A stretch of DNA of 54,319 nucleotides from Phocaeicola massiliensis (GCA_963615565.1 CAVEGR010000079.1:1-54319); one strand, 5' to 3'. Shown: positions 1-2,246, numbered from the stretch's first letter. Notes: generated by a model from the letters alone, not told the origin. Translations and numbers: made by a program.

Positions 1-1258
1 GAACCATACTATTGAAGCTTGTTCCAGAAAGCCATTTTTTACGAATAGTTATTGCTTGCAAATATGCTCTTATCACATCTTCAGAGGAAATATCACTTTC
101 TTGATGCTCTAACATTTTGCTATAAAGCCTAGCAATGTTATAATACAAAAAACCTCCCCACACGTTTAAACCCAAATCTACTTTGTCTAAATACTCGTTT
201 ACAATCTTTTCATAGCATTCTTTTGTAGCAAGCAACTTATCAAAAGAAGGAGAATAAGAATATAAGTGCATCATTGTAAGGCCAATATAATCGTAATACA
301 GAACTTCCAGTAAAGGATTTACTTTCTCACCTTTTGGTGGTGGATTTAGTTTTAAATTAACAAGTAATTCTTCATAAGTGCTTTGGGTTGGCTTGCAAGA
401 ATCAACCATCTTTTGTTTTATGTAAGAAATTACAACACTTAATGTATTTTTCCCAAAATCTAATAATTTACAATTTCCATAATATTGCCTGTCTTTTTCT
501 TTATAATCACCTAAAATCTTTTCAATTTTTGTGTACCAATTAGAAACAGCATCTTGTTTACCAAAAATGGGCAAGAATGCCACTCGTTCAGCTATATACA
601 TTAGGCGTTCATCAAAGTAATTAAGACTTTTACATTCATCTAACCACACATCAAGCAAATTTTGTAAGTATTCCTTATTGTTGCCAGTATGATTTTTATC
701 ATACAGATAGAACAATTTTCCATAATTAACAAAATAAGTTTCACGTCTAAGTAAATTGTCATATTGAGAAAACTCTTCATTTTCATCTTTACTTGTACGG
801 CTCAACTGCAGAATCTTCTTTATAACATCATTAAATACTTGTGTTTGGGTTTGATTGTTAAAAAATCTAATATCAAGTCCATTCATGTCAGATGGAAGTT
901 CAACACAATCAGCTTTATCTTCAAAATCTCCTAGCAGAATGCAGTGTTCTCTTCCAAGCTTATATAGAGCCATCCCTAACTCAAACACAACGTTTTGGCG
1001 CAAGCGTAAAACATTTTTATTGTTTTTAATACAACAGTCGTCAGCAGTCAAAATTGCAATGCAAATTTCCGTTTCGCTGAATAATTGAGTGACTTTTTCC
1101 AGGATATCACCTGTTAGTATGGATTCCATTACTATTCGAGAAGATAAAGGATATCTATTCTCCTTTTCATATTCATTTATAGATTCGTTTAGACTCTTTG
1201 CATATATACCACCTGAACCTCCATAAATAATAGAAATGGTTTTATATCTTGAAATCAT
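1..1258 (-). CDS. TIR-like domain protein (Cap12 / Pycsar-effector type) with an uncharacterised helical C-terminal region. The 3' end runs off the window.
   Basis: Absent from the ORF track because no stop lies in the window. I hand-translated the - strand from ATG 1258-1256 (purine-rich GGAAGGGAAGA just upstream) and found 419 codons with no stop down to position 2. The N-terminus MISRYKTISIIYGGSGG..ICIAILTADD..RLRQNVVFELGMALYKLGREHCILL..VELPSDMNGLDIRFF matches the conserved blocks of the bacterial TIR-like family (LTpDD; RqNVifElGyf.gkLGreRv..L; elPSDl.G). I recognise no motif in residues ~150-419. Confidence 0.7.
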   Translation of the reverse strand, partial: MISRYKTISIIYGGSGGIYAKSLNESINEYEKENRYPLSSRIVMESILTGDILEKVTQLFSETEICIAILTADDCCIKNNKNVLRLRQNVVFELGMALYKLGREHCILLGDFEDKADCVELPSDMNGLDIRFFNNQTQTQVFNDVIKKILQLSRTSKDENEEFSQYDNLLRRETYFVNYGKLFYLYDKNHTGNNKEYLQNLLDVWLDECKSLNYFDERLMYIAERVAFLPIFGKQDAVSNWYTKIEKILGDYKEKDRQYYGNCKLLDFGKNTLSVVISYIKQKMVDSCKPTQSTYEELLVNLKLNPPPKGEKVNPLLEVLYYDYIGLTMMHLYSYSPSFDKLLATKECYEKIVNEYLDKVDLGLNVWGGFLYYNIARLYSKMLEHQESDISSEDVIRAYLQAITIRKKWLSGTSFNSMV

Positions 1259-1338
1259 TCTTCCCTTCCTATGAGGCTTTTACAACATTTTGCAAGAACC
1301 TCCTATATTTCTTTAAAACGTCTGTCTATACAGTATAA

Positions 1339-1551
1339 TTGCTAGCTTTAAAAAAAACAAACAGATTCTTTTCAAGTTTTCAAAGCCGCAATAGACTCCA
1401 TGAGAGTCTTAGATATAAGACTCCTGGAGAAGTCTACAAAAAAGGGAGTTTCCCTGAAATAAAAACTGGGGCTGTTACAAGTCAACGAATTGCAACAGCC
1501 CCCGGAAAAGAAAAAAAGGTTTTATTGGAGTTTTATACTCTTCTCAAATAA
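1339..1551 (+). pseudogene. Possible remnant of the extreme C-terminus of a DDE (rve/IS3-like) transposase; not a functional gene
   Basis: TTG-initiated 70-aa ORF. Residues 17-33, RNRLHESLRYKTPGEVY (about 1387-1437), resemble the C-terminal tail of integrase-core transposases (R.HssLgYkTPaEvy). There is no catalytic domain and I saw no terminal inverted repeats. The rest of the ORF overlaps a terminator hairpin. Confidence 0.3.
1457..1502 (-). terminator. Rho-independent terminator of the 1533..1922 gene
   Basis: 9-bp stem GGGGCTGTT (1468-1476) / AACAGCCCC (1494-1502) with a 17-nt loop. On the - strand the hairpin is followed by AGTTTTTATTT (1467-1457). Confidence 0.6.
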
Positions 1552-1922
1552 TTGAGCTTTGAGTATTCATAAGATTGACGAATCCAGCTCTTTAATTCTG
1601 AATCAATATCAGTACAAGACTGGATTGGAACGTGATAGACGTAAGAACCATTTGGAAGAGGTTGAAGAGTTTTCTCAATCCTCTCATTTGAAATTCTCTT
1701 TTTATTTGTAAAACTCAACGTAAAGAGAGAAGGCTTTGTACTTTCAGAAGGAAGAGCAACATAAGCAAAACCAACTGAAGTCCTGAAAGCTATAATAGAA
1801 TCTTGTACAGCAATTCTTGCCTCTGGACAAAACTCTCCTATATATGTCTTCAGGTTTTCAAATGCTTCTAAAGACACTGGATTGTTATCAAAAAAAGCCT
1901 GTGCTTTATCCTCGCCTGACAT
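1533..1922 (-). CDS. DUF5655-like hypothetical protein
   Basis: The ORF track gives 1533..2009 from a TTG. An internal ATG at 1922 (MSGEDKAQAFF..) has GGAGG 9 nt upstream and gives the ~129-aa size usual for this family. The C-terminal block YVYHVPIQSCTDIDSELKSWIRQSYEY resembles the DUF5655 signature. The start is uncertain and 2009 remains possible. Confidence 0.55.
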   Translation of the reverse strand: MSGEDKAQAFFDNNPVSLEAFENLKTYIGEFCPEARIAVQDSIIAFRTSVGFAYVALPSESTKPSLFTLSFTNKKRISNERIEKTLQPLPNGSYVYHVPIQSCTDIDSELKSWIRQSYEYSKLNYLRRV

Positions 1923-2246
1923 TCCTTTTTGCCTCCTAAAAAAGGTTCTTCCGCAGTCTTCTTTTAGACTTTGTAATTGGATTATAAATGGCGTATTCAG
2001 ATTTGTCAATTCCTTATATTACAAAAAGTTATGAGTTTTTTGTGTCATATATTTCTTATATAACTATGCTAGTAAAACCAAATAAAAACACTCTTAAAAC
2101 TGTTTTGCTTTTTATAAATTTCACTGAGATTTAATACTTGTGTTTTTGAGGCTTTTACTTAGCCACAAAAAAAGTTCACTTTTCTTTTTCAAACATCGTA
2201 TGTATTATTTACATGTGAACAAACCTTGTTCACCACGGAGGAAACT

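Follow-up and report, generated by a model that had tools for sequence, protein, structure and literature searches.

The stretch of DNA analysed here (the window) is the 54,319-nucleotide sequence CAVEGR010000079.1:1-54319 from Phocaeicola massiliensis (GCA_963615565.1), and the subject of the analysis is a minus-strand gene at its left edge, designated TIR-TPR, whose product joins an N-terminal TIR-like domain to a C-terminal helical domain. Contig C79, whose first part is the window, belongs to a metagenome-assembled genome (MAG) of 155 contigs and 1.72 Mb, with 94.8% completeness; since the window begins at a contig end, the TIR-TPR frame is cut at the window edge. The features of the gene are listed below, with SfSTING denoting the Cap12/TIR-STING protein of Sphingobacterium faecium.

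1..1258, minus strand: TIR-TPR gene, first 419 codons and first base of codon 420 (continued on contig C106, 9357..9152)
803..1243, minus strand: PF10137 TIR-like catalytic domain, residues 6-152 (Pfam, AlphaFold2 model, Foldseek)
980..1000, minus strand: active-site motif R87-Q-N89-V-V-F-E93 (phmmer alignment to SfSTING; PMC9402430)
887..898, minus strand: L-P-S-D124 loop (D124 aligns with D110 of SfSTING)
725..802, minus strand: interdomain linker, residues 153-178 (AlphaFold2 secondary structure)
2..724, minus strand: TPR-like alpha-solenoid, residues 179-419 of 179-486 (AlphaFold2 models, structure and profile searches)
1259..1271, minus strand: Shine-Dalgarno region AGGAAGGGAAGAA, directly before ATG 1258 (sequence)

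The TIR-TPR gene and its product

Within the window the frame occupies positions 2..1258 (minus strand, 419 codons, ATG at 1258, no stop up to the window edge), and the open reading frame check agrees with a sequence-only reading of the window, which had described a 419-codon frame running off the left edge. In a BLAST search of an independent 3,653-bp Logan contig (L004) against the genome, C79:1 and C106:9357 were found to abut without gap or overlap. Codon 420 is split over this junction, the last 67 codons are located at C106:9355..9155 and the stop codon at 9154-9152; the joined frame comprises 487 stop-free codons, giving a full protein of 487 amino acids (aa). The Logan contig, from a second strain, carries a TIR-TPR copy that is 99.3% identical and encodes a full-length product, and the two copies differ in nine codons (seven synonymous, two non-synonymous). 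Homologues begin at the methionine equivalent to ATG 1258. The frame belongs to a genuine, intact gene of 487 codons that a break in the assembly has divided.

Each of the three MAGs of the genus that carry the gene, among them G004 and G024 (C126/L024), has it divided at contig ends. In G004 (C18/L023, C95/L022, C107/L133) the two TIR-TPR pieces overlap by 55 bp, and a polymorphic-toxin-like gene with alternative C-termini, one of them bearing a CdiA_C domain, links C107 and C95. These features suggest strain-level variation around the TIR-TPR and polymorphic-toxin-like genes.

Residues 51-131 match the Pfam family PF10137 (CAP12-PCTIR_TIR) with E=1e-15 and 58.2 bits, against a gathering cut-off of 24.7 (61 bits in the whole-genome scan). 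The match upholds the earlier assignment of the domain to the TIR-like family of effectors found in Cap12 of the cyclic-oligonucleotide-based anti-phage signalling system (CBASS) and in the pyrimidine cyclase system for anti-phage resistance (Pycsar). Among PADLOC models, the protein was matched by PDC-S35 (E=7e-16, best), the CBASS "Effector TIR" model and PycTIR (E=3e-8). Both motifs quoted from the sequence, NVVFELGMALYKLGREHCILL and ELPSDMNGL, are present. When aligned with SfSTING (phmmer, 7un8), R87, N89, E93 and D124 pair with R78, N80, E84 and D110, respectively. The glutamate of the FELG block, previously proposed as the catalytic residue, is E93, and it aligns with the FEFG glutamate (E84) of SfSTING. 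None of the four paired residues varies among 54 members of the family. In SfSTING, E84 is catalytic, R78, N80 and D110 are also active-site residues (R78 and N80 for substrate binding), and D110 enters the active site of a partner TIR on filament formation, completing that site (PMC9402430); a literature search found nothing on SfSTING E84A. A Foldseek search of the PDB with the N-terminal domain returned the SfSTING TIR (7un8, E=3e-5; 9lmq/9lmr), followed by DNPH1, the SARM1 TIR and nucleoside 2-deoxyribosyltransferases. The N-terminal domain is assigned to the NAD-cleaving TIR-like enzymes used in bacterial anti-virus systems, and NAD+ glycohydrolase activity is predicted for it by analogy.

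AlphaFold2, run with the 54-sequence alignment, gave a confident two-domain model (pLDDT 90.3, pTM 0.89). Numbered from ATG 1258, it consists of an alpha/beta TIR fold (residues 6-152), a linker (153-178) and fourteen helices (179-486), which were also modelled alone (pLDDT 87). The C-terminal ~280 aa, described as unrecognisable in the sequence-only reading, thus take the form of a TPR-like alpha-solenoid in the prediction; the same reading's suggestion that this helical region could be a sensor is compatible with the model, in which it forms a separate domain that could act as one. In a structure search the isolated helical domain had no PDB match at E<=0.001, its best likenesses being designed repeats, 14-3-3, LGN and Rap (TM about 0.35-0.4), and the protein has no TPR Pfam match at E<=0.1; "TPR-like" therefore denotes a fold class of the model and not a family assignment. 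Some homologues do match TPR Pfam models (PF13424, PF13181 or PF00515). Neither a STING nor a SAVED domain was matched by Pfam in the protein, whose C-terminal domain is all-helical.

Family, distribution and genomic setting

A word-indexed search yielded 111 relatives of 476-500 aa, with 36-76% identity and none of them named. When a profile of the helical domain was compared with 1.84 billion representative proteins, only 134 were matched, nearly all of them 475-540 aa long with the match beginning near residue 150-200. Among 52 remote matches to this profile, 42 carried PF10137 and one TIR_2, and none had a MilB/DrHyd-type domain. Because the profile matches are few, share the same architecture and are mostly fused to PF10137, the solenoid is, as far as sequence comparison goes, private to this TIR family of roughly 480-500 aa. 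One solenoid-profile match of 414 aa (P0198), considered as a bridge to the BcTpr protein of Bacillus cereus, proved to be another stand-alone PF10137 protein, from a capsule locus. Mean pairwise identity in the family is 55% for the TIR domain and 39% for the solenoid, which keeps many invariant polar and aromatic residues (E, R, N, W and Y).

The distribution of the family is patchy. It was detected in 29 of 185,579 species genomes, all of them gut Bacillota MAGs; the closest carrier is Ca. Scatosoma, followed by Oscillospiraceae, Acutalibacteraceae, Christensenellaceae, Erysipelotrichales and RF39-like Bacilli. Two of 60 relatives searched carry the gene (3/61 genomes with this one). Within the genus it is present in 2 of 26 other genomes, and a search of 10 other genera of the same taxonomic family gave no match. 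Carriage on plasmids or phages was considered and rejected, as sequenced plasmids and phages match only in the TIR domain, through PycTIR-like genes. A single IMG/VR contig holds one full-length TIR-TPR copy, 2.3 kb from a large serine recombinase and beside an ABC transporter.

The composition of the gene is deviant as well, with a GC content of 31.6% versus 37.8% for the genome, and only 0.6% of the genome's 1.5-kb windows are lower. The features to the right of the gene are as follows.

1457..1503, minus strand: terminator-like hairpin GGGGCTGTT...AACAGCCCC with T-run, downstream of the DUF5655 gene and setting it apart from TIR-TPR (sequence)
1533-2009, minus strand: DUF5655 gene (PF18899, E=6e-10), a neighbour and not a partner
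1403..1467, no strand assigned: solo remnant of a repeated element end, probably of an insertion sequence (IS), between DUF5655 and TIR-TPR (matches to C97 and C136)

A second terminator-like hairpin, with a 12-bp stem, follows the TIR-TPR stop codon, ahead of the ribosome-binding site of a dihydrodipicolinate synthase (DHDPS) gene, and TIR-TPR appears to be monocistronic. To its right, the DUF5655-like gene noticed earlier is confirmed by the PF18899 match; then come trxA, a phosphoenolpyruvate carboxykinase gene and metabolic operons. DUF5655 is paired with trxA throughout the genus, whether TIR-TPR is present or not, and it was rejected as a partner since the pair is kept in congeners lacking TIR-TPR and DUF5655 has its own terminator.

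The 65-bp repeat at 1403-1467 recurs at the extreme ends of C97 (28162-28226, 86% over 65 bp) and C136 (10886-10914). Repeats at contig ends are typical of multicopy insertion sequences that break assemblies, and this one is probably the end of such an element. Of the transposase-tail remnant proposed earlier at 1387-1437, the repeat is real and best placed at 1403-1467; the transposase identity is only inferred, the 70-aa frame having no Pfam match.

To the left, contig C106 carries genes for a nanA-like DHDPS, YhcH, a ROK kinase, def, fmt, a radical SAM protein, VanZ, FKBP, DUF308, RadC and an AAA_14/DUF4143 ATPase. The sequence-only reading had raised the possibility that the gene marks the edge of a defence island; inspection of C106 revealed housekeeping genes instead, and an island to the left of TIR-TPR was rejected. 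The sole candidate defence gene on C106 is the AAA_14/DUF4143 ATPase gene (C106:78-1295, minus strand; L005), a near-full-length match to PADLOC PDC-S01 (E=5e-152) that adjoins the RadC gene, ~8 kb from TIR-TPR.

Gene order differs from that of the congeners on both sides. The RDD-like/ABC block that comes after DUF5655 in the closest congeners is located, in this genome, at the end of C132. In three congeners (L130, L131, L132), genes for a substrate-binding protein and two permeases, a probable sialic-acid importer, precede the nanA-like DHDPS gene; no orthologues of them are present in this genome, and TIR-TPR holds that position (C106:9101-9357 / window position 1). TIR-TPR thus lies exactly between two synteny breakpoints, beside the IS-end remnant. 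Reconstruction of an empty site was not possible, as both flanks are rearranged relative to the congeners. In the two congeners that carry TIR-TPR, the gene is found in a context different from that in this genome. The gene was probably acquired horizontally as a single cassette. Beyond the RDD-like gene, the last 460 bases of C132 (44078-44537; L025) form a repetitive stretch, parts of which recur on at least seven further contigs (C55, C3, C73, C75, C1, C65 and C136).

Homologues sit in varied surroundings, among them genes for ribosomal proteins or for sugar-acid catabolism and, between RlmL and a LysR gene, a variable slot. One homologue has a TraG/TrwB coupling protein close by and is probably part of a conjugative element; another lies among two TIR_2 genes, a NUDIX protein and a gene with a ryanodine-receptor (RyR) domain. 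A recurrent neighbour cluster spanning seven loci was discarded, as it consisted of unrelated ABC ATPases. Two related Clostridia (L010:4388-9482 and L027:4125-9479) carry TIR-TPR in the same RlmL-LysR slot with different cargo alongside: 23S_rRNA_IVP, major facilitator superfamily transporter, Imm_superinfect/SHOCT and metallo-beta-lactamase-fold genes in one, Exo_endo_phos, DUF1538 and P-II genes in the other. The slot looks like a variable hotspot.

Signalling partners and related systems

Immunity in bacteria, plants and animals relies centrally on TIR NADases. Of the bacterial ones characterised so far, most depend for activation on a separate signalling enzyme (CBASS, Pycsar, Thoeris) or on an NTPase switch (Avs). 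Genes for signalling partners were sought in the whole assembly, which is 94.8% complete. There was no match to the SMODS nucleotidyltransferase (CD-NTase, PF18144), to class III cyclases (PF00211, none adjacent to TIR-TPR either) or to TIR_2/TIR (PF13676, PF01582), and no second PF10137 gene. The earlier remark that no cyclase or other partner lies to the right of the gene therefore extends to its other side and to the assembly as a whole. Membership in CBASS, Pycsar or Thoeris was rejected, as no CD-NTase, cyclase or TIR gene is present in the genome.

The nearest characterised relative is SfSTING (7UN8; 9LMQ/9LMR), which shares PF10137, the conserved R/N/E/D active-site residues and the order of an N-terminal TIR followed by a sensor domain, and which is the best match in both sequence (E=1e-5) and structure (E=3e-5). 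Unlike SfSTING and CBASS Cap12, the putative sensor of TIR-TPR is a TPR-like solenoid and not a STING domain, and in contrast to Cap12 no CD-NTase is encoded in its operon or genome, its neighbours being DUF5655 and DHDPS. The PycTIR effector of Pycsar (8JSJ) is likewise a PF10137 TIR NADase, with a weak direct match to TIR-TPR (E=0.02); however, its TIR domain is C-terminal, behind the sensor region, whereas that of TIR-TPR is N-terminal and lacks the cyclase partner (PycC).

In overall architecture the protein resembles ThsI of type VIII Thoeris and BcTpr of the B. cereus BcTir/Tpr system, which combine an N-terminal TIR/MilB-class N-glycosidase, an N-x-x-x-E motif and a C-terminal TPR region. 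ThsI (CMP-hydrolase-like plus TPR) is activated by cyclic ADP-ribose (cADPR), and BcTpr (a MilB-like N-terminal domain with N82/E86, plus TPR) depletes NAD+; according to the BcTpr preprint, "core Tpr alone" is the commonest configuration. As far as the descriptions set them apart, ThsI and BcTpr are CMP-hydrolase/MilB-like proteins of ~415 aa, whereas TIR-TPR is a PF10137 protein of 487 aa. Moreover, they work with an adjacent TIR gene (ThsB/BcTir), whereas the TIR-TPR genome has none and the gene has its own flanking hairpins.

The best PADLOC match, PDC-S35, is made through the TIR-like domain, but only profile positions 123-219 of 231 are covered, corresponding to the C-terminal TIR part of a ~250-aa protein whose overall architecture is unlike that of TIR-TPR. 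PDC-S35 is itself a candidate, and a literature search on it found nothing. TIR-bearing STAND/Avs proteins with TPR sensors also join a TIR effector and a helical-repeat sensor in one polypeptide; TIR-TPR differs in having no NTPase (NACHT/NB-ARC) between effector and repeats, and is much smaller.

Readings of function

Taken together, the data are best accommodated by an autonomous one-gene sensor-effector NADase serving as an anti-phage suicide switch, a reading to which we give about an even chance. At rest, by analogy with TIR-STING and other TIR effectors, the solenoid would hold the TIR domains apart. A phage-derived protein or peptide, or else a small ligand, would act as the trigger by binding a conserved face of the solenoid and causing TIR-TPR to oligomerise, whereupon the D124 loop of one TIR would complete the R87/N89/E93 site of its neighbour. 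The completed site would destroy NAD+, and the infected cell would halt growth or die before phage release.

The idea of a single-gene TIR-sensor defence protein, already put forward in the sequence-only reading, draws its support from the homology of the domains and from the patchy distribution, unusual composition and changing location of the gene, and not from association with defence islands. Several observations weigh against it. The flanks of TIR-TPR in this genome are housekeeping genes of metabolism and translation. A PADLOC scan of 123 neighbours within 3.3 kb of the homologues, at 29 loci, yielded unspecific ATPases, a cysteine desulfurase, one PDC-S02, one PDC-S61 and one PD-DExK; about four of the 123 are credible defence-type matches and the rest are mostly housekeeping, so that there is no measurable defence-island enrichment around the homologues. 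Housekeeping left-hand neighbours and homologues without island association were the very findings named in advance as contrary to a defence role, and the C106 genes and the 123 neighbours largely conform to them. In addition, the NCBIfam equivalog models for Cap12 give 46.6 bits, far short of their cut-off of 450, a consensus scan detected no promoter upstream of TIR-TPR on the gene's strand, and the invariant polar residues of the solenoid fit a conserved ligand better than a fast-evolving phage protein. Finally, the family, with its private solenoid and without an NTPase or signalling partner, is uncharacterised; neither its enzyme domain nor the logic of joining a TIR to a repeat sensor is new.

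If the suicide-switch reading is correct, the TIR-TPR family would be a minimal version of such immunity, in which a PF10137 TIR is wired directly to a private helical-repeat domain, and it would offer a small system for studying how repeat domains gate TIR assembly. Its weak tie to known defence genes means that island-based discovery would miss it. A 2025 systematic survey of bacterial TIR systems explicitly set aside stand-alone TIR proteins, and stand-alone families such as this one therefore remain uncharacterised.

The main rival, which we consider unlikely, is an orphan effector of the ThsI/BcTpr type, in which the solenoid would bind a nucleotide second messenger such as cADPR, supplied by a TIR or another enzyme, whether encoded elsewhere or by the invader, and thereby turn on the TIR-like hydrolase, which would act on NAD+ or another nucleotide. 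The shared architecture, the invariant polar residues of the solenoid, the proximity of two homologues to TIR_2 genes and the prevalence of the solitary Tpr arrangement are all in keeping with it. Nevertheless, the genome lacks TIR_2, TIR, SMODS and cyclase genes, the gene appears to be monocistronic, a TIR neighbour is lacking at most homologous loci, and no N-terminus of MilB/DrHyd type turned up with the solenoid profile.

There is also a small chance that the protein is a regulated NAD+ or nucleotide/nucleoside N-glycosidase with a role in the cell's own physiology, e.g., dormancy or control of nucleotide pools, encoded by an accessory gene. Housekeeping genes flank TIR-TPR both here and at most homologous loci, the fold also resembles DNPH1 and the nucleoside 2-deoxyribosyltransferases, and the C-terminal domain is conserved, as such a role would have it. 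Against this stand the very patchy distribution even inside the genus, the deviant GC content, the difference in locus between congeners, and the fact that the closest characterised relatives by sequence are abortive-infection NADases.

A further reading, in our view improbable, was raised by clustering the neighbours of homologue loci, which delineated a family of ~700-790-aa membrane proteins lacking any Pfam domain. Members of this family occur within 7 kb of TIR-TPR at four independent loci. In the present genome one is encoded outside the window, as part of a minus-strand gene pair at C135:15134-19607 (L134:6135-10608). The membrane gene (C135:15134-17224, minus strand) specifies 696 aa with N-terminal membrane helices and no Pfam domain; 5 bp upstream of it is the gene for a 792-aa protein that contains a genuine RyR domain (PF02026, E=1.7e-8), together with a weak HD match and a weak DprA/SLOG-like C-terminus. 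Both of these protein families are rare. TIR-TPR might then be one arm of a dispersed NAD-derived signalling system, making or consuming a signal shared with this HD-RyR-SLOG-like protein and the large membrane protein. Such a bacterial TIR/RyR-domain module would, if real, recall the cADPR-ryanodine-receptor signalling of animals.

Besides the four shared loci, the genuine RyR domain and the adjacency of the RyR and membrane genes in three genomes (this one and two other TIR-TPR genomes), co-occurrence favours the dispersed system: the membrane family is found in 11 of 30 TIR-TPR genomes versus 0 of 58 relatives of this genome that lack TIR-TPR, and the RyR protein in 5 of 30 versus 0 of 58, although the compared groups are not phylogenetically matched, which tells against it. 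So do the location of the pair away from TIR-TPR in this genome and the weakness of the SLOG-like and HD matches. Since most TIR-TPR genomes are without both genes, and the membrane family also occurs without TIR-TPR (in 5 of 40 TIR-TPR-less relatives of another carrier, G084), partnership of the RyR and membrane genes with TIR-TPR is not obligatory; the genes may be accessory modules that travel together, or a dispersed system. A short shared motif (E=0.001) had hinted at a RyR domain in the ~740-aa membrane protein and in the 1016-aa protein encoded upstream at locus L028, but such a domain was rejected for these two proteins, which gave no PF02026 match even at E<=1 and no hhalign match.

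The last alternative, a decaying or inactive remnant or an assembly artefact, suggested by the breakage of the gene over contigs in three MAGs and by the adjoining IS remnant, is largely refuted and very improbable, given the exact abutment of C79 and C106 in one uninterrupted 487-codon frame, the full-length copy in an independent assembly, the mostly synonymous differences between strains and the intactness of every catalytic residue.

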